Positions 1,415-13,768 of a stretch of 13,768 nt of DNA are shown piece after piece; the stretch's first letter is position 1, and each line of letters starts with the position of its first letter. The notes beneath the pieces are model-generated. The model saw only the letters and a list, made by a program, of their open reading frames with translations. It was not told the origin of the DNA and did not search any database. The translations under genes were made by a program, and so were the position numbers. The stretch lies in assembly GCF_003334335.1 (NCBI RefSeq), contig NZ_QOWQ01000061.1. One strand, given 5' to 3'. This stretch comes from Escherichia coli. GTDB taxonomy: Bacteria > Pseudomonadota > Gammaproteobacteria > Enterobacterales > Enterobacteriaceae.

Positions 1415-1573
1415 GGAAGTGATAGGAAGTGACCAGATAATACATATATGTTCTGTACTCTCTTGCGCATTTTGATTGTTGACTGAGTAACCAGACAGTT
1501 GATGTGCACGATTTCCCCTCGCCCTAACAGACGTGGGCGGGGGCACCCGGTGTGTGCAATATACGAAAAAAAA

Positions 1574-1601
1574 GCCCGTACTTTCGTACGAGCTCTTCTT
1601 T
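1574..1601. terminator. Hairpin flanked by an A8 run on one side and a T-rich run on the other; possible bidirectional intrinsic terminator
   Basis: Stem GCCCGTAC (1574-1581) / GTACGAGC (1586-1593) with one mismatch, loop TTTC, preceded by AAAAAAAA (1566-1573) and followed by TCTTCTTT. Read on the minus strand it is a hairpin followed by U8, the stronger terminator orientation. Confidence 0.4.
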
Positions 1602-1636
1602 AAATATGGCGGTGAGGGGGACCGCCTGAAATAAAT

Positions 1637-1664
1637 CTGACTTAATCCAGGGGTGTTATATAAT
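1637..1664 (+). promoter_or_regulatory. Candidate sigma70-like promoter upstream of the integrase gene
   Basis: -35-like CTGACT (1637-1642), 16-bp spacer, perfect -10 TATAAT (1659-1664), about 115 bp upstream of the int start. Sequence match only, no expression evidence. Confidence 0.25.
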
Positions 1665-3169: not shown

Positions 3170-4987
3170 TCACTCCTGCTGAGACTGAATTATTCCTAGT
3201 GCGTCATAAATCAGTCTTCTGCGTAGTTTATTGTTTTTATCTGCACCATATAACATAAATATATTTTCAACTTTTTCTTCAGGTGTTCTGAGATAATGGA
3301 TAAGAAAGGTTATCATTCCAACACAATGGAATAAAGTGAATCCATCAAACAGGCTTATCAGGTTTCCTTTTTTTTCCCGTGTTGTAAGTATTTTTTCGCG
3401 GGTAAGAATATTTGCCAGTTCATGGGGGGCTGATATGTTTCTGCTGTCTATAATGTCATTTATTTTACCAAGGGCTATATCAACTTCCTGTAATAGGTTA
3501 TTTATCATAGCTGAGTGAATGTTATTGGTTTCATGTTCCTGACAGTTTATGAACTTATAAATCATTGAGTTATACAGAAATATTACTCTTCCTAATAAAT
3601 ATGTGTTTGTGTCATTTTGAAGACAGGACTCTGGGTATTCGTGATCCAGTGAAATAAGGTTAATGGACTCGCCCTGATAAGTCATAAAATAATTGATGTC
3701 ATTTAATAATGCTCGGATATTTACATGATTTTTACTGAATTTTATTTTAAATGCTATCTTTAGTATAGCAAACGCGGCAATGATAAATCCAAAAGGTAAT
3801 TTCTCATAGTTCAGTTTATTGATGGTGCGATGAACACTTTCAGTCTTTCCTGAAGTAAGTTGTCTCAAACAGTTAACAAATTCTGTATAGCCATTTAAGA
3901 CATAATGGCATGAAGAATCTTTTAAAGAGTTTTCTATGTTTTGTAATGTGACGCCGTTGTTCAATGTATAAATGTAACCGCCAAAGACAATGTTTTCAAT
4001 CTCAACGACACAATTTATTGTTTTTTGTTCAGGATAAAGATAAATATCAGAAATACTATAGTCTCGTATTGCGTCAATGGCATCCCACGATAATGCACTG
4101 TCAATTTTCAGTGTATAAAATGGTGAGTTCTCATTAGGAAAGTAATATATGTATTTGTTCAGTATATTCATTACATCTATTGGGTTGGTTAAATATAATA
4201 ACTGGCATTCATATTCTGAAACTTCTCTTTCGCTTATCAGCATTTTATATAAAGTTGCCAGGGTGCTTGTTAATGAAGTTCGTCTTTCGAAAGCCAGTAA
4301 TATAGTGAGATAATAACATGCAACCTGAACTTTATCTAAGTCAGAAATTATTTTTTCCTTGTCTTCATTACTTAAATAAAGCAGATGTTTACAGGTTTCT
4401 TTGCATGTGTTGATAGTTGCGATAAGTTTTGTTTTTCCTGGTGTACTGTTTTTGCGAATATTACGAATGAATTCATATACGCCATCAAAGATATCTTTGA
4501 AATGCGCATTCGCTGGCGTGTATCCGGATAAACATAACTTAACGTAATTTCGCAGATATGTCCTTGCAGCATGATATATATCATCCTCATTATCCGGTAT
4601 CTGAGTGAGAAAAGAATGAATATGATAGTAAAATGCCATCTCATTATCCGGGCGATATGTGTTCCTGATGTCGAGTGCGAGAATCATTGGTACAATGTCA
4701 TTAAAATATTTTTGTTTTATTATTTGATGTGTTTTGTCTGTAAAAACAGAATAGTGCATTAGCTTAACATAGAGATCTTCATATCTCCTAAATATAACTT
4801 TTCGTTGTTCTTTACTCAATACTTGTTCTTTATCAATAATGTTTATTAATTCATCAAACATGTCGCCCAGTGAATGTTGATGTGAGGAAAAATTTTTAAT
4901 ATTTCGGATGTCACGGCTATTCTGGTTTTTAGCCAGAACACCAAAACATGAAAAGACATCATACATTATAGTGATAAAATTATACAT
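3170..4987 (-). CDS. Hypothetical protein, 605 aa, no recognisable family; AT-rich orphan cargo gene
   Basis: Long uninterrupted minus-strand ORF. Strong SD (AAGGAGA) 5 nt upstream of the ATG at 4987 (minus-strand sense). Codon usage markedly more AT-rich than int or the 1083-aa gene (by eye). One predicted hydrophobic helix (KLPFGFIIAAFAILKIAFKI). I recognise no catalytic motif. Confidence 0.8.
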   Translation of the reverse strand: MYNFITIMYDVFSCFGVLAKNQNSRDIRNIKNFSSHQHSLGDMFDELINIIDKEQVLSKEQRKVIFRRYEDLYVKLMHYSVFTDKTHQIIKQKYFNDIVPMILALDIRNTYRPDNEMAFYYHIHSFLTQIPDNEDDIYHAARTYLRNYVKLCLSGYTPANAHFKDIFDGVYEFIRNIRKNSTPGKTKLIATINTCKETCKHLLYLSNEDKEKIISDLDKVQVACYYLTILLAFERRTSLTSTLATLYKMLISEREVSEYECQLLYLTNPIDVMNILNKYIYYFPNENSPFYTLKIDSALSWDAIDAIRDYSISDIYLYPEQKTINCVVEIENIVFGGYIYTLNNGVTLQNIENSLKDSSCHYVLNGYTEFVNCLRQLTSGKTESVHRTINKLNYEKLPFGFIIAAFAILKIAFKIKFSKNHVNIRALLNDINYFMTYQGESINLISLDHEYPESCLQNDTNTYLLGRVIFLYNSMIYKFINCQEHETNNIHSAMINNLLQEVDIALGKINDIIDSRNISAPHELANILTREKILTTREKKGNLISLFDGFTLFHCVGMITFLIHYLRTPEEKVENIFMLYGADKNNKLRRRLIYDALGIIQSQQE

Positions 4988-6086: not shown

Positions 6087-6395
6087 ATGGGGGATAAAAT
6101 GCCAGATCAATCCGGACACTGCAGGACTCCTTCACGCATCTTACGGATGCCTGAACTGAGCCAATTGTTAGGTATATCTCGTTCGACAATTTACGAAAAA
6201 ATGAATCCGTTATCGAAATACTACGATGCAACCTTCCCCAGGCCGGTACGTCTTGGTAGTGGTTCTGTGGGCTGGCGTTCATCAGCTATTGACGAATGGC
6301 TTACTTTACATACTGTACCTGCCAGATCAGCAGTCAAAGGTGTTAATGACGAAGTGAGACATACGCTTTCTTCAGATATGACCATGAGCAGATAA
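6087..6395 (+). CDS. alpA: AlpA-family (prophage CP4-57 regulatory protein-like) DNA-binding regulator / excisionase-like protein
   Basis: Motifs ILRMPELSQLLGISRSTIYEKMNP and YDATFPRPVRLGSGSVGWRSSAIDEWL match the AlpA helix-turn-helix family. The likely true start is the ATG at 6099, preceded by GGGGGA. Confidence 0.85.
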   Translation: MGDKMPDQSGHCRTPSRILRMPELSQLLGISRSTIYEKMNPLSKYYDATFPRPVRLGSGSVGWRSSAIDEWLTLHTVPARSAVKGVNDEVRHTLSSDMTMSR

Positions 6396-6477: not shown

Positions 6478-6830
6478 TTCCAGCATTCATTGTTGAAAGA
6501 GCAGCTATTGTCGCTATTGTAGCGGTAATTGCTGCTATAACCGAAACGTATTACGAAAAAGGAAGCATTTATGCCTTACATCAAACCGGATATGCCGTAT
6601 TCAGTATATGCATGACCATCAATGATAGGGAAGGCAATAATTAAAGCTCAATACAATAAACAAGTACCTCTGACTCTGGTTGCAATGTCAGTATTAACAG
6701 CGATGTCAATTGCCTGTCAGAATCAGGTTGACGTATGCAGTCCCGGAAATTTACGTGGGGCCGTTAATATTTACACTATGGTTCTGGAGAAAGGGAAAAG
6801 ACCGGGGGAAAGGTATTAGTGAAATAATTT
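6478..6830 (+). repeat. Direct repeat copy 1: diverged duplicate of the promoter-proximal and 5' coding region of the yfjI-like gene
   Basis: Aligns by eye over about 330 bp with 6958-7310, including the shared motif AGCAGCTATTGTCGCTATTGTAGCGG and the coding stretch CAATTGCCTGTCAGAATCAG(G/A)TTGACGTATGCAG. I estimate roughly 75-80% identity (not computed). Confidence 0.7.
6571..6819 (+). pseudogene. Degenerate duplicated 5' fragment of the yfjI-like gene
   Basis: ATG at 6571 gives MPYIKPDMPYSVYA* and then, after a 1-nt indel relative to copy 2, a second frame (6622-6819) encodes ...QVPLTLVAMSVLTAMSIACQNQVDVCSPGNLRGAVNIYT, paralogous to QAPLAMVATSALTAISIACQNQIDVCRPGNLHGPVNLYS of the intact gene. 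Confidence 0.55.
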
Positions 6831-6957: not shown

Positions 6958-7310
6958 GTCTGAATAGCAGCTATTTTCGCTATTGTAGCGGGATTTGCTG
7001 CTATTTTACTAACCCATTAATGAAAAGAGAGGCTTTTATGTGCTTACTTGCACCAGAAAATCCTTATCCGATATATGCACTACCACCGCTGGTGAGAAAT
7101 GCAATAATTGAAACTCAAAAAAATACACAGGCACCTTTGGCTATGGTGGCAACATCCGCATTAACAGCGATCTCAATTGCCTGTCAGAATCAGATTGACG
7201 TATGCAGACCTGGAAATTTACATGGGCCTGTTAATCTTTACTCTCTGATTCTGGCTGATTCCGGTGAAAGGAAAACGACCGTGGATAAAGTGTTTATGAA
7301 AGCATTTTAT
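6958..7310 (+). repeat. Direct repeat copy 2: the intact promoter-proximal and 5' region of the yfjI-like gene
   Basis: Partner of copy 1 at 6478-6830; this copy is continuous with the long ORF starting at 7020/7038. Confidence 0.7.
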
Positions 7311-8177
7311 CTCAGGGATGAAGCCCTGGCGGAAGAATACGCGAAACTGGTTGAGAATTACAGTACAGAAAAGGAAATATGGGAGCAAAAACAAAAAGCG
7401 CTGGAATCAAAATTTCATAAAGAGATTCGTGCCGGTAAAGATTACAAGGCAACAGAATCAGAGCTTGAAACGCATCTGAATAAACCTCCTGTTCCGCCGC
7501 AGATACGTCGAACAATTTTTAATGAGACAACGATAGAGGGAATGTTAAAATATTACTCCGATAGCAATCGCTCTTTTGCTCTTGTATCCAGTGAAGGGGG
7601 GGTAATTTTTGACAGCCGGGCCATGAGTAAACTGGGAATTATTAACACTTTGTGGGATGGAGGTTCTCTTTTCATCGACAGGAAATCATCTCCCGGAATT
7701 AATTTGAAGGAGCCAAGACTGACGATATCGGTGATGATTCAGCCTGATGTTTACCACAAAGGTTTTTGTACGCGAAAAAAAGAAATTGTGAAAACGTCAG
7801 GACATCATGCAAGGTTTTTGATGTGTCAACCAACATCAACGCAGGGGACAAGGATAATAACCGGAGATAATTATTCATCACAGTATCAGGATTTGTTTGA
7901 AGAGAGGATCAATGAGCTTATTGATGAAAGTCTGGCGATGAGTGGTGAACGACGTTGCCTTCACTTTTCTCCTCAGGCTGCCAGAATCTGGACGGATTAT
8001 TACAATGATGTGGAATCGAAGCTGGGGGGATTGGGGCCTTTAAGACATTGCCGGGAATATGCTGCTAAAAATGCAGAGTATATGGCAAGACTGGCAGGAC
8101 TTATTTACCATTCGAGCGGGGGAGATTTCCCCTTACACTGCAGAAATGGCGAGAGAATTAGCAATATGGTACGGTAA
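7020..8177 (+). CDS. yfjI-like (DUF3987-type, putative replication-associated) protein, N-terminal 385 aa; frame interrupted near the 3' end
   Basis: Long ORF in the position occupied by yfjI after alpA in CP4-57-type islands. SD-like AAGAGAGG precedes the internal ATG at 7038, the more likely start. The reading frame continues in another frame (8059-8463) after a G5 tract. DUF3987 assignment is from genomic context and memory, not a search. Confidence 0.7.
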   Translation: MKREAFMCLLAPENPYPIYALPPLVRNAIIETQKNTQAPLAMVATSALTAISIACQNQIDVCRPGNLHGPVNLYSLILADSGERKTTVDKVFMKAFYLRDEALAEEYAKLVENYSTEKEIWEQKQKALESKFHKEIRAGKDYKATESELETHLNKPPVPPQIRRTIFNETTIEGMLKYYSDSNRSFALVSSEGGVIFDSRAMSKLGIINTLWDGGSLFIDRKSSPGINLKEPRLTISVMIQPDVYHKGFCTRKKEIVKTSGHHARFLMCQPTSTQGTRIITGDNYSSQYQDLFEERINELIDESLAMSGERRCLHFSPQAARIWTDYYNDVESKLGGLGPLRHCREYAAKNAEYMARLAGLIYHSSGGDFPLHCRNGERISNMVR

Positions 8178-8463
8178 TGAGTATGTGCGGTTGTCTAATC
8201 CGTTAACTTTTGACAACTCTGCCCTGACCGTACCTGTGCGACTCATTCCAGAGGAGCTTGAACTTTTCAACTGGATAAAAAGCTATTGTATTGAGAAGGG
8301 GATCCTCTGTATGAAAAAAAATGACATTTTACAGCGTGGTCCGAACCGTTTCCGGAAAAAGGATAAAATCAACTGGTTACTGGATTTACTGTATGAACAA
8401 AACAGAGTTGTACCGGTTATTGAGGGAAAAACGTTGTGTGTCGCACCTAACTTTGACCTCTGA
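8059..8463 (+). CDS. C-terminal segment of the yfjI-like protein in a shifted frame
   Basis: Overlaps the previous ORF by 119 nt in a different frame; no independent RBS. Combined length (about 480 aa) is what I expect for a yfjI-family protein. Confidence 0.55.
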   Translation: MLLKMQSIWQDWQDLFTIRAGEISPYTAEMARELAIWYGNEYVRLSNPLTFDNSALTVPVRLIPEELELFNWIKSYCIEKGILCMKKNDILQRGPNRFRKKDKINWLLDLLYEQNRVVPVIEGKTLCVAPNFDL

Positions 8464-8486
8464 ACGACTTAATCGTTGAGTTCATA

Positions 8487-8517
8487 TAGTCTCCTCTGCT
8501 ACTTGCGGAGGAGACTA
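8487..8517 (+). terminator. Perfect 10-bp stem-loop immediately downstream of the yfjI-like gene; possible terminator or protein-binding hairpin
   Basis: TAGTCTCCTC (8487-8496) pairs with GAGGAGACTA (8508-8517), 11-nt loop. Downstream sequence is only moderately T-rich, so it is not a canonical intrinsic terminator. Confidence 0.35.
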
Positions 8518-8518
8518 A

Positions 8519-9283
8519 TGTCTTTACCATGTCAGCGTTGTATTAGAAAACTCTGGTACAGGTCAGTCAGTAAATATAACTGGTGTAACCACTATTTACT
8601 ATTGGATAGAGTGTTGCTCAGGATATTGTCGGCTTTAGTCTGAGGTGAGGTGGGGCCTTCATTGTTTTCGTGTTCAATAAATAATTTAGGTTAATTAGTA
8701 TTATTAGTGGAAGTTATGTGATCTGTTATGTTGTCTTGTACGCACTTAACACTGGTTACGTACCGGAACACTATTAGAGTATGTTATGGCTCTGTTACAG
8801 TTTATAGGTATGAAAAAATATAATCTTTCCTGTATGAAATAATATTCTTATGGTGTGTGGGGTATGGTCTGTATACCATCATTTTTATGGTGAAGTTAAA
8901 TATCTGTAGAGGCCTTAAGCTGGGTCGCTGTTTTTACTTAATGGTACAGAAGTATTAATAGCGGTGTTGCCTGTGGCTACCCGATACTGGCTTTTGTGAA
9001 TGTCAGATTACTTCCTGTAAGTGATTGAATGGTACTTCCTTAAACTCAATTCTATGAGGTGTGTTTTTACCATTGTAATTCGTACTGGTCCTCAGTTTAA
9101 GTGAGTCTTACTGTACTCTGAAATATTACCTCTTTGGAGTAATGAGGTAATACGAAACAGTTTTATCAGGTTGTCTGTGCTGCTGGTTACCTCGTTTATT
9201 AATGCCGCGGTACGGCGTTTCTGTACTCTCAGTATTTATGTAATTCCACCTTCCTGTAACTTTTATAAAGTAAGGACTATAAA
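8519..9283. other. ORF-free AT-rich region with short repeated motifs and hairpins; candidate replication origin / regulatory region
   Basis: No ORF of 60 aa or more in any frame across about 820 bp. Repeated TTCCTGTA (8826, 9012, 9250), CTGTACTCT (9111, 9221), TGTTATG (8715, 8725, 8782). Inverted repeat TATTACCTC/GAGGTAATA (9124-9151). Sits directly upstream of the HUH Rep-like gene. Confidence 0.3.
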
Positions 9284-9847
9284 ATGTATAATGCTAATCC
9301 CAATTACGAAATGGACTTCATGATTCTGAAAGACGTGAATGAACACATGGAAGGTCTGTTTCAACGTTTTTCTAAACTGTTACCTTTCAGAATTGATTTT
9401 GCCTACAGGAAAGACACGCCCAGTTTTGGTCATTCCTGTAGGCACAGTATGTGTATTGAAATGCACCGCTTACTTAGTGAAACCCAAACGATGCTGGCGG
9501 GATATTACTGGGTAATGGAATATACGTCAAACAAGGGACTTCATATTCATTTTATCGGCTACTTGGATGGGCAACGTCACAAGAAATTTTATCGGATATC
9601 CAGGCAACTGGGAGATATCTGGAGTCGGATCACGGAAGGGGAGGGTTATTTTCACCTGTGCAGTACTAAAGACAAATACCCGGTGCGTATCGATCACGTG
9701 ATTCACTATAGTGATAAGTCTGCGGTAGACGGTTTACGTTACGCCCTTAGCTACCTGGCTAAACAGGAGCAGAAAGAACACGGTATTATTCTGATGCGTA
9801 GCAGACTTCCCGAAAAAAGTAACCGCGGCCGACCACGACACAACTGA
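9284..9847 (+). CDS. YagK/YfjJ (inovirus Gp2)-family protein with HUH-type motifs; putative rolling-circle Rep-like initiator
   Basis: 187-aa ORF with an HUH-like motif LHIHFIGY and a downstream tyrosine motif YALSYLAK (YxxK-like). Occupies the position of yfjJ in CP4-57-like islands. Shorter than I would expect for this family. Confidence 0.65.
   Translation: MYNANPNYEMDFMILKDVNEHMEGLFQRFSKLLPFRIDFAYRKDTPSFGHSCRHSMCIEMHRLLSETQTMLAGYYWVMEYTSNKGLHIHFIGYLDGQRHKKFYRISRQLGDIWSRITEGEGYFHLCSTKDKYPVRIDHVIHYSDKSAVDGLRYALSYLAKQEQKEHGIILMRSRLPEKSNRGRPRHN

Positions 9848-10497: not shown

Positions 10498-13768
<3,271 letters not shown>

Follow-up and report, generated by a model that had tools for sequence, protein, structure and literature searches.

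A conserved element upstream of a YfjJ-like HUH gene: candidate control or origin region of an Escherichia coli island

Double-strand origins of the pT181 and pMV158 families pair a conserved 'nic' locus with plasmid-specific 'bind' direct repeats. At the origins of CRESS viruses and geminiviruses, Rep-specific iterons overlap the rep promoter and the nonanucleotide is exposed in a hairpin loop, and some HUH origins need no hairpin. The origins of SaPI/PICI elements and of P4 are laid out with iterons flanking an AT-rich stretch, located 3' of the pri-rep or alpha gene.

We analysed a 13,768-nt stretch of Escherichia coli DNA (assembly GCF_003334335.1, contig NZ_QOWQ01000061.1; hereafter the window), in which an 820-bp gap (8464-9283) separates the helicase-like gene yfjI from a YfjJ-like HUH gene. 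The original prediction had proposed an origin at this position, based on iteron-like repeats and hairpins. What held of this proposal is a cis control or origin region belonging to the HUH gene, and it held by way of a 37-bp element, box1, which is the main support for such a reading and had not been flagged; the repeats and hairpins occur, as a class, at chance levels and form no iteron array. Box1 is the sole deeply conserved element of the gap and the one piece of it retained across the YfjJ-like family, and it is probably the site of action of the Rep-like protein or of its regulator.

The gap and its flanking genes

The gap, its subdivisions and the neighbouring genes are as follows.

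6087-6395, plus strand: AlpA-family regulator gene (Pfam Phage_AlpA, E=7.3e-19)
7020-8463, plus strand: yfjI (DUF3987, helicase-like), split by a frameshift near 8119-8129
8464-8678, plus strand: 3' flank of yfjI, the first 215 bp of the gap (block-wise BLAST of 60 loci; alignment)
8679-8715, plus strand: box1, AAATAATTTAGGTTAATTAGTATTATTAGTGGAAGTT, 37 bp (nhmmer profile, conservation)
8716-9283, plus strand: G+T-rich spacer or leader from box1 to the yfjJ-like start codon, non-coding and without a conserved RNA fold
9284-9847, plus strand: YfjJ-like HUH gene ('inovirus-type Gp2'), intact, 187 aa

Both flanks were as predicted, with the DUF3987 gene yfjI upstream and, downstream, a YfjJ-like protein that carries H-x-H and an invariant Tyr157. 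Among 15 homologues of the latter, H87-x-H89 was nearly invariant and Y157 invariant. Database names for this protein are inovirus-type Gp2 and rolling-circle replication-associated protein. Its Pfam match to REP_ORF2-G2P was weak (E=1.2e-3), and its AF2 model (pLDDT 88) gave weak Foldseek matches (E ~5e-3) to the HUH nuclease domains of AAV Rep and parvovirus NS1; a PDB sequence search with the family profile returned nothing. The split in yfjI was located by tblastn with an intact 477-aa YfjI, whose residues 1-366 aligned in frame 3 and residues 364-477 in frame 1 of the window. The intact allele matched Pfam DUF3987 (E=1.7e-85) and a PHROG entry named 'DNA helicase'. Together with the DUF3987 protein, the usual backbone of these islands includes an AEP-SF2 helicase, whose gene normally lies 3' of yfjJ; here it is cut to residues 24-118, and Mokosh mkoA stands in its place. 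Strain M19 (NZ_CP010221.1) is an example of an allele with yfjI and the AEP-helicase gene intact. We rejected the assignment of this AEP-helicase neighbour to a TOTE system (TPR, OB, TBP, Effector), since none of these partners is found here and the label thus denotes a domain family. In many distant loci alpA lies directly 3' of the yfjJ-like gene. Islands of this type, which carry AlpA and an HUH Rep, have been predicted to replicate as satellite-like elements, replication being deduced there solely from the presence of the AlpA and HUH genes (bioRxiv 10.1101/2025.09.15.676423).

As had been claimed, neither strand of the gap has a reading frame that reaches 60 aa. Its longest ORFs encode 55 aa (8476-8643) and 50 aa (9171-9323), and none is conserved among alleles. 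We also considered hydrophobic small ORFs of 40-50 aa in the long alleles; since these could not be aligned between alleles and their substitutions were mostly non-synonymous, they were treated as a by-product of G+T-rich DNA. The description of the region as AT-rich was overstated (37.3% GC, against 41.7% for the window) and applies strongly to 8660-8740 only (26% GC), a segment that coincides with box1. Among 5426 complete E. coli genomes the gap is present in 1587 (~29%) and annotated in none. In its carriers it has yfjI on one side and an intact YfjJ-like HUH gene on the other, and the same allele recurs at an identity of at least 99% in 749 records. Carriers include O157:H7 strains and ATCC 25922, and a 41-kb circular record of the island, CP088535.1, comes from strain E16EC0562 and is a candidate multi-copy episome. 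Three candidate assignments were discarded: the Esr41 sRNA of SpLE1/OI-43, which has a different place in the island, between z1181 and z1182; a 'plasmid' match, NZ_CP010208.1, which has the core genes proA, phoE and dinB and is a mis-assigned chromosome; and an 85-bp match in strain PEC41 that adjoins a terminase fragment and is a scrap of rearranged DNA between pieces of IS. DNA and protein searches of a phage collection yielded no informative relative.

Box1 and its upstream position

An nhmmer profile of box1 built from 19 loci other than the window gave one match in the window (E=5.1e-7). The family consensus is GAATTAAGGTTAATTARTATTATYTAnAGAAGT, and the window copy is intact and identical to those of functional-looking relatives. 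The profile matched 91 sites in the 941 kb of loci that were fetched, and 89 of them lay upstream of a yfjJ-like gene and on its strand; for the other two the contig ends before the gene, and none was placed elsewhere. The carriers include Orbus, Yersinia, Erwinia, Rouxiella, Thorsellia, Citrobacter, Budvicia and others. Box1 of Orbus and that of the E. coli/Citrobacter type agree at 25 of 25 nt, while the proteins are 35% identical. This indicates stronger conservation of the cis site than of the gene, a pattern typical of HUH nick sites. In loci where other DNA replaces yfjI (L004, L037, L041 and L064), similarity to the window begins exactly at box1. The segment before it, 8464-8678, is 96-97% identical among yfjI-linked alleles and missing where yfjI is missing. 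No match to the box1 profile was found in the K-12 yagK region (L114), no box1-like site upstream of K-12 yfjJ (L002) by a 17-mer search with up to 4 mismatches, and no paper by a literature search with the exact box1 sequence.

Box1 includes the hexamer TARTDT, in which T, A and T are kept in 19 aligned lineages and in the window while positions 3-5 vary. These three positions, written TAnnnT, are the ones best conserved in a -10 element. Close behind an origin at this site comes a promoter or AlpA-type operator, which we regard as a substantial possibility. If box1 were a promoter or operator only, then AATTAAGGTTAAT beside TAnnnT would bind or load an island-encoded regulator, an AlpA-family protein being the candidate, which would act in the manner of P. 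aeruginosa AlpA or lambda Q, and the long leader hairpins would be terminators that transcription passes only with the regulator present. In a variant of this proposal, transcription from the alpA-yfjI operon crosses the whole gap. The pattern of invariant T, A and T with variable positions 3-5 over 20 lineages favours a promoter, and so does the arrangement in Rouxiella (L104), where the next conserved leader element is only ~24 nt away from box1 and a separate promoter would not fit; on these two grounds box1 could be a promoter and nothing else. An alpA gene is present in the window, and in many distant loci alpA comes right after the yfjJ-like gene; either would supply the regulator. The leaders of relatives add to this picture. 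They contain a hairpin that sequesters the Shine-Dalgarno sequence and whose own sequence differs from lineage to lineage, from which it follows that the leader is transcribed, and several of them are C-rich and G-poor (rut-like).

A simple promoter scan, however, found no plus-strand site in the gap, and no conserved -35 hexamer was present 16-18 nt upstream of TAnnnT in 13 lineages. Since the would-be spacer is in addition the best conserved part, the element looks unlike an ordinary sigma-70 promoter. The published AlpA element (ABE), GGGACGN5GGTA, is absent and unrelated in sequence, and promoters seldom stay identical over 25 nt from one order to another.

The surroundings of box1 were compared between lineages. 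Single-stranded DNA folds of box1 with 45 nt on either side were weak and inconsistent in 19 lineages, and box1 is thus not in a conserved hairpin. Direct repeats adjoin it in locus L107 (13-nt units in 8-9 copies, which would be unexpected for a promoter alone), in L098 (AGTrGAAGTATC units, plausible) and in long E. coli alleles such as L035 (a 12-nt tandem in two copies). The window has only GTTATG in three to four copies and CCTGTA in three, at a total repeat content expected by chance.

Drift, repeats and hairpins in the leader

The short repeats and hairpins of the gap are the following.

8487-8517, plus strand: hairpin right after the yfjI stop codon (~-25 kcal/mol), terminator-like with a poor T tract
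8714-8738, plus strand: GTTATG-type short repeats and a deletion junction, just 3' of box1 (alignment with L032)
8829-8834, plus strand: CCTGTA copy 1, inside TTCCTGTA, specific to the window allele at this site (alignment)
9014-9019, plus strand: CCTGTA copy 2, kept in most alleles
9253-9258, plus strand: CCTGTA copy 3 (comparison with the leaders of relatives)
9110-9166, plus strand: two-tier imperfect hairpin with ACTGT (9110-9114) and ACAGT (9157-9161) at its base, followed by TTTAT
9124-9132 with 9144-9152: upper stem of that hairpin, TATTACCTC pairing with GAGGTAATA
9201-9219, plus strand: GC-rich hairpin AATGCCG/CGGCGTT followed by TCTGT, terminator-like

The leader of ~570 bp is long by the standard of most relatives, in which 60-260 nt separate box1 from the start codon. 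The stretch from 8716 to 9283 evolves at about the synonymous rate and with indels: its 3' 380 bp are 84-89% identical between alleles, against 84-90% for the third codon positions of yfjJ, and the middle of the gap is ~75% identical with many indels between direct repeats. The window allele lacks 157 bp after ~8723 that other alleles have between two ATCTGTTATGTT..GTCT repeats. The original prediction had made repeat excess and conservation among related islands its checks. The repeats proved no commoner than expected, and the region is indeed conserved among related islands, though over most of it at best to the level of synonymous sites, which makes the outcome a split one. By these comparisons most of the gap is a fast-drifting spacer.

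Such drift, together with the frameshifted yfjI and the AEP-helicase gene reduced to residues 24-118, would also suit a gap that is as a whole a decaying relic without present function, kept by a young clonal island. We consider this unlikely. Box1 and the yfjJ-like ORF are both intact, the allele shared at 99% identity or more by 749 records shows that decay is not advanced, and a relic status would concern present activity, not the identity of the element.

The three repeated motifs that had been reported do recur, TTCCTGTA three times (8827, 9012, 9251), CTGTACTCT twice (9111, 9221) and TGTTATG twice (8724, 8782). Their description as iteron-like did not survive comparison with 500 dinucleotide shuffles, since repeated 8-, 9- and 10-mers and inverted 8- to 10-mers fell within the shuffled range (P = 0.14-0.56). 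TRF detected no tandem array in 8400-9350, and a repeat finder returned only short families of two to four copies. CCTGTA, the core of TTCCTGTA, is enriched in the window (3 copies against 0.31 expected, P=0.002). In relatives it is enriched, on the same strand only, ahead of independent genes of the yfjJ/yagK type, where 9 copies compare with 1.47 expected and none of 1000 shuffles reached 9. We rejected CTGTA as a family-wide iteron, as its enrichment is limited to some lineages. In relatives a pyrimidine arm of the leader pairs with the Shine-Dalgarno sequence; copy 3 of CCTGTA lies inside the degenerate version of this arm in the window. The Shine-Dalgarno sequence of the yfjJ-like gene here is AAGGA at 9272-9276. 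A profile of the leader 3' end of relatives (AAAAATTACA box plus Shine-Dalgarno hairpin) had no match in the window.

The scarcity of repeats bears on a further proposal, in which the gap would be a theta-type iteron origin for YfjI, placed 3' of its gene in the manner of SaPI/PICI or of the P4 ori/crr. Its position directly downstream of a helicase-like gene, the 26% GC of 8660-8740 and two hairpins within 8487-8600 are in keeping with such an origin. But TRF, the repeat finder and the k-mer shuffles gave no iterons, the gap between yfjI and yfjJ in K-12 is just 152 bp, and the 5' 215 bp are too invariant for selection to be tested in them. We consider a theta origin improbable.

Of the two hairpins that had been reported, the one at 8487-8517 exists, in a form other than the perfect 10-bp stem described: it has 13-nt arms (12 of 13 complementary) and a 5-nt loop. 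It is present in all alleles, with variation too low for a covariation test. The inverted repeat TATTACCTC/GAGGTAATA was found as reported, at 9124-9152. The larger hairpin of which it forms part (9110-9166) may act as a terminator or as a palindromic site for a protein. Its pairing is kept in 90% of cells over 17 distinct alleles, against 28-54% when the partner is slid, and covariation over 9110-9161 was not above that of shuffles (one compensatory cell, U-A to G-C; 431 of 500 shuffles as high or higher). At 9201-9219 single mismatches break the hairpin in some alleles, and its apparent conservation is biased because the site served as search pattern. The region 8000-9700 holds three terminator-like sites where 0.8 are expected, which speaks for terminators in a regulated leader; against that role, two of the three hairpins are allele-specific, the one at 8850-8879 lying within a 37-bp indel.

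A non-coding RNA had been offered as the alternative content of the gap. Several observations would be compatible with a long structured RNA or a small RNA, namely the strand-asymmetric G+T-rich composition, a minus-strand z of -3.2 in single-sequence folds (just 20 shuffles per strand) and 12 G-U cells in the 9124-9152 hairpin, which fit a plus-strand RNA. The same folds gave z=-1.7 for the plus strand, however, and are not decisive, and the middle third of the gap is ridden with indels. An Rfam search of the whole window at E<=1 gave nothing in 8464-9283, the only matches in the window being sub-threshold ones to MicC and Thr-leader at 1558-1662. For the 3' 430 nt, RNAalifold on 36 alleles returned a poor consensus fold of -35 (plus) and -24 (minus) kcal/mol over 450 columns, with the covariation term acting as a penalty. 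With no Rfam match, a poor consensus fold and hairpin covariation absent, this alternative fell away: the gap is not a structured RNA, and we hold any RNA of either kind to be highly improbable. Effort on a supposed new RNA is thereby saved.

A tentative origin core and its relation to known systems

The explanation we favour, though tentatively, is that box1 is the core at which the HUH protein recognises or nicks its origin, perhaps with the gene's promoter overlapping it, and that the gap is a control region of two modules. The first (8464-8678) would be the 3' flank of yfjI with its strong terminator-like hairpin, and the second would begin with box1 as the one sequence under deep selection, the ~570-bp stretch it opens being a lineage-specific leader expansion in near-neutral drift. 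Once the island is excised, the YfjJ-like protein would recognise box1 and nick one strand via Tyr157, and the nick would start replication of the rolling-circle type. Box1 would then correspond to the conserved 'nic' core, and the downstream lineage-specific repeats to the variable 'bind' part. Since box1 contains the invariant TAnnnT, it may double as the -10 of the gene's promoter, and an element that is both origin and promoter would lead to Rep autoregulation, as in geminivirus origins. The module in the present window is probably a relic; its yfjI is frameshifted and its AEP-helicase gene truncated and replaced by Mokosh mkoA. Several points count against an origin: box1 has no conserved hairpin, the window has no iterons that statistics can detect, TAnnnT is invariant, the spacing in L104 is tight, and the Pfam and Foldseek matches of the protein are weak.

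A wider proposal, which we put forward as possible but doubtful, is that YfjJ-type HUH proteins and box1 together form a self-contained rolling-circle replicon core common to a very large class of islands. This class would take in enterobacterial 'cryptic prophages', pathogenicity islands and defence islands (SpLE1/OI-43 and PAI-serX backbones here, CP4-44-like ones in relatives). After AlpA-driven excision the islands would replicate as circles from box1, and the lineage-specific repeats would set the specificity of each Rep. Such islands carry virulence and anti-phage cargo, here Mokosh mkoA, and if the replicon-core proposal is true, box1 would be a universal marker of, and an experimental handle on, the putative satellite-like life cycle of defence islands. 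Box1 offers a precise and cheap target for nicking assays, origin cloning, promoter mapping and ChIP, and it can be used as a sequence marker for finding the module in genomes.

Compared with pT181 and pMV158 origins, the gap is likewise located upstream of, adjoining and co-oriented with an HUH initiator gene, and it likewise has a short core that does not vary within the initiator family and that in some lineages precedes direct repeats peculiar to each of them. It differs in that box1 has no conserved hairpin and the window repeats are weak or absent; the carrier, moreover, is no small plasmid but an island in the chromosome that measures tens of kilobases and has an integrase, and nicking is putative. 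With CRESS and geminivirus origins it shares the idea of an invariant core with variable iterons, and possibly an overlap of origin and rep promoter. The box1 core TAGTATTAT resembles TAGTATTAC, which we take to be the CRESS-virus nonanucleotide; TAGTATTAT / TAATATTAT would match eight of nine positions of the CRESS/geminivirus nonanucleotide, presumably TAGTATTAC or TAATATTAC. Unlike the CRESS motif, box1 lies outside a hairpin loop, and the fold matches of the YfjJ-like protein to viral HUH domains are weak; nothing points to shared ancestry.

With AlpA and lambda-Q sites, such as P. aeruginosa PalpB, the locus has in common a conserved element that immediately precedes a hexamer of -10 type, an AlpA gene in the island and a long leader with terminator-like hairpins; in contrast to AlpA sites, box1 is unrelated to the published AlpA element and has no recognisable -35. 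The non-coding stretch 3' of a helicase-like gene recalls the origins of SaPI/PICI and P4, from which the gap departs in having no iteron arrays and in a conserved element that goes with the HUH gene and not with yfjI. The island type resembles SaPI/PICI and P4 in its P4-like integrase, AlpA and helicase-like gene, and a satellite-like lifestyle has been proposed for it (bioRxiv 10.1101/2025.09.15.676423).

The interval between yfjI and the YfjJ-like gene

The island in this window adjoins ycdU, and its backbone is that of O157:H7 SpLE1/OI-43 and the CFT073-type serX island. Its features are as follows.

1781-2983: integrase
3170-4987, minus strand: 605-aa orphan gene, an ORF in 30-33% GC DNA between integrase and alpA
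Between this gene and the AlpA-family regulator: IS1 debris
6087-6395: AlpA-family regulator (Pfam E=7e-19)
6571-6801: DUF3987 N-terminal fragment, 54% identical to YfjI residues 1-78, called a small 'DUF3987 domain-containing protein' in other annotations
7020-8463: yfjI, in two frames
8464-9283: ORF-free interval
9284-9847: intact YfjJ-like 'inovirus-type Gp2' (HUH) gene, 187 aa
10042-10325: AEP-SF2 helicase remnant, 95 residues (residues 24-118 of a 788-aa protein)
10498-13749: Mokosh mkoA (PADLOC PDLC03921, score 1218), reaching the window end

The original prediction proposed iteron-like repeats or a structured RNA in the interval. We confirmed that no ORF of 60 codons or more is present and that the listed motifs and both inverted repeats lie where they were placed. 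One of the latter, the hairpin at 8487-8517, has 13-nt arms and one mismatch instead of the perfect 10-bp stem described. The supposed AT-richness is slight overall (37% GC vs 42% for the window) and pronounced only at 8660-8740 (26% GC). As a class, the iteron-like repeats did not stand out: in k-mer counts against 500 dinucleotide shuffles, repeated and inverted 8- to 10-mers stayed within the shuffled range (P 0.14-0.56), and TRF found no tandem array in the interval. The RNA alternative fell as well, with no Rfam match inside the interval and a poor RNAalifold consensus (36 alleles, 450 columns; -35 kcal/mol on the plus and -24 kcal/mol on the minus strand, with covariation penalty). The inverted repeat at 9124-9152 caps a two-tier hairpin (9110-9161) with TTTAT after it. 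Across 17 alleles the arms of this hairpin stay paired in 90% of cells (28-54% with slid partners), and its covariation was not above shuffles. No ORF is common to the alleles, and most differences among the hydrophobic 40-50-aa ORFs of the long ones are frame shifts or non-synonymous substitutions. The interval is neither coding nor structured RNA.

Of 5426 complete E. coli genomes, 1587 contain the interval, annotated in none, and it was absent from the phage collection searched. Alleles came from E. coli records, one genome scan, and pattern scans of viral contigs and metagenomes, which gave 36 different sequences for the 3' part and 30 that span the full length, mostly 960-1010 bp. Relative to allele L032, the window has lost 157 bp after ~8723, between two ATCTGTTATGTT..GTCT repeats, and gained 37 bp at 8848-8884, likewise between direct repeats (ATTCTTATGGTG / ATTTTTATGGTG). 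The gained segment, shared with allele L034 and missing from most alleles, holds one of three terminator-like hairpins (8850-8879). Identity to the window is 96-97% over the first 270 nt, like yfjI itself, ~75% in the middle and 84-89% over the last 380 nt, vs 84-90% at yfjJ third codon positions; constraint over most of the interval is therefore not detectably stronger than at synonymous sites. Where other DNA replaces yfjI (loci L003, L004, L037, L041, L064 and L079), similarity to the window starts at ~8680, so the interval is made of two modules, 8464-8678 going with yfjI and 8679-9283 with the yfjJ-like gene.

A recurring element upstream of yfjJ-like genes

Comparing the DNA that precedes distant yfjJ-like genes (30-65% protein identity) revealed a shared motif, GAATTAAGGTTAATTARTATTATYTAnAGAAGT, which we call box1; the window copy lies at 8679-8715. 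With the window left out, 19 loci were used to build an nhmmer profile, which gave a single match in the window (E=5.1e-7). Over 111 sequences (941 kb) the profile gave 91 matches, 89 of them on the same strand and at most 1.4 kb upstream of a yfjJ-like gene; for the other two the locus sequence stops short of the gene. The Orbus (Orbales) copy is identical at 25/25 positions although the protein is 35% identical, and box1 also occurs in Yersinia, Erwinia, Rouxiella, Thorsellia, Budvicia, Citrobacter, Kluyvera, Cedecea and Klebsiella loci. Its distance to the start codon differs between lineages, being 60-260 nt in most, 580 nt in the window family and 1000-1150 nt in a 63%-identity family (L107-L109). 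An exact-sequence literature search found no mention of the motif. In K-12, the 152-bp yfjI-yfjJ gap (L002 7396-7547) has no box1-like site in a 17-mer search allowing 4 mismatches, and the profile has no match upstream of yagK (L114 4950-5220). The yfjI-yfjJ gap does contain CATCTTGATAGG, a sequence similar to CTTGATA, the nick site of pC194/phiX174-type origins.

The DNA 3' of box1 is variable. Locus L107 (1539-1640) carries eight to nine tandem 13-nt units (TGTAAnTCTAsCG / TGTAAATGAACyC) beginning 4 nt past box1, an iteron-like array more distinct than any other found in the family; the array recurs in L108, L109 and L111, a sister family with a ~1 kb leader. AGTrGAAGTATC-like units follow box1 in L098, a 12-nt unit occurs twice in long E. 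coli alleles, and the window retains GTTATG-type remnants only. The window leader holds three copies of CCTGTA, the core of the TTCCTGTA motif of the original prediction, against 0.31 expected (P=0.002). Taken from the window as a prior hypothesis, CCTGTA was enriched, and on the gene strand alone, in L008, L012, L107 and the K-12 yagK upstream region, the last with three copies; the total of 9 (1.47 expected) was reached by 0/1000 shuffles.

Eleven relatives (L005, L008, L012, L019, L096, L100, L102, L103, L106, L107 and L110) have a common leader in the 80 nt before the start codon: a AAAAATTACA box ~50 nt ahead of the ATG and, after it, a hairpin of a pyrimidine arm and the Shine-Dalgarno sequence. 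The stem differs per lineage (CTTCCT/AGGAAG, ATCCTTTG/CAAAGGAT, CCATGAA/TTCATGG, TGTTCCT/AGGAACA and others) in what looks like compensatory change, and the arrangement suggests that the HUH gene is controlled at translation. Searching with a profile of the leader gave no match in the window, where the third CCTGTA (9253-9258) sits in a degenerate counterpart of the pyrimidine arm.

State of this island and related records

Box1 and the HUH gene are both intact in the window. The module has probably lost the ability to replicate, because yfjI is frameshifted and the AEP-helicase truncated. A shift near 8119-8129 splits yfjI, a single 477-aa gene in other strains, into 385-aa and 134-aa ORFs, reflecting either a frameshift pseudogene or a sequencing error. 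The fragment at 6571-6801 is what is left of another yfjI-like gene, older than the present one and located upstream of it. Other strains have the complete 788-aa AEP-helicase 3' of the Gp2-like gene; here the Mokosh MkoA gene stands in place of most of it, as if cargo had been exchanged immediately 3' of the replication module. The helicase's label, TOTE, stands for TPR-OB-TBP-Effector, and these partners are absent here. Neither NCBIfam nor PADLOC gave a match for the 605-aa ORF, which may be a cargo or defence gene of an uncharacterised kind. At 1558-1662 (minus strand), a sub-threshold Rfam MicC match (37.6 bits; gathering score 90) and a Thr-leader match are driven by a strong GC hairpin and U tract, probably a mere intrinsic terminator between ycdU and the integrase.

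Islands that integrate at tRNA genes and carry a P4-like integrase, AlpA and HUH Rep have been predicted to be satellite-like replicating elements delivering defence systems, in a 2025 preprint that names no origin (10.1101/2025.09.15.676423). Record CP088535.1, a 41,067-bp circle deposited as an E. coli plasmid, consists solely of one complete CP4-44-like island, with integrase at one end and DUF4942 at the other; it carries CbtA/CbeA, antirestriction and autotransporter genes and an inovirus Gp2 family gene with box1 ~1.15 kb upstream. Replicon typing assigned it no type. The record may reflect an island circle that was excised and numerous enough to be assembled on its own, or else an assembly artefact. 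NZ_CP010208.1, labelled plasmid B of strain M11, was rejected as a plasmid since it carries proA, proB, phoE, crl, gpt, dinB and fadE and is mis-assigned chromosomal DNA; 'plasmid' matches for this region are therefore not trustworthy.

Origin and promoter readings of box1

Our leading, still tentative, reading of box1 is the core of a rolling-circle origin, possibly doubling as a promoter. It would supply a nic-like core, and the neighbouring variable direct repeats a bind-like part. The resemblance of its TAGTATTAT core to the CRESS-virus nonanucleotide is a lead only, and the lack of a conserved hairpin around box1 counts against an origin. That box1 is instead a promoter/operator and nothing else is a close, only slightly less probable rival. 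The TAnnnT of box1 is invariant and is the hallmark of a -10 element, and in Rouxiella the next conserved leader element follows box1 too closely for a second promoter to fit between them. Box1 has no conserved -35. Its conserved part would be the spacer, the place at which AlpA and lambda Q are loaded onto RNA polymerase (PMC7969949). AlpA genes accompany box1/yfjJ-like modules. Other readings of the interval share the remaining probability.

Origin and promoter are not exclusive, since Rep promoters that overlap origins are common. Rolling-circle origins of the pT181 and pMV158 families combine nic and bind loci, that is, an invariant core and variable direct repeats. Box1 resembles them in its invariant core, its fixed orientation by the HUH gene, and the variable direct repeats beside it.
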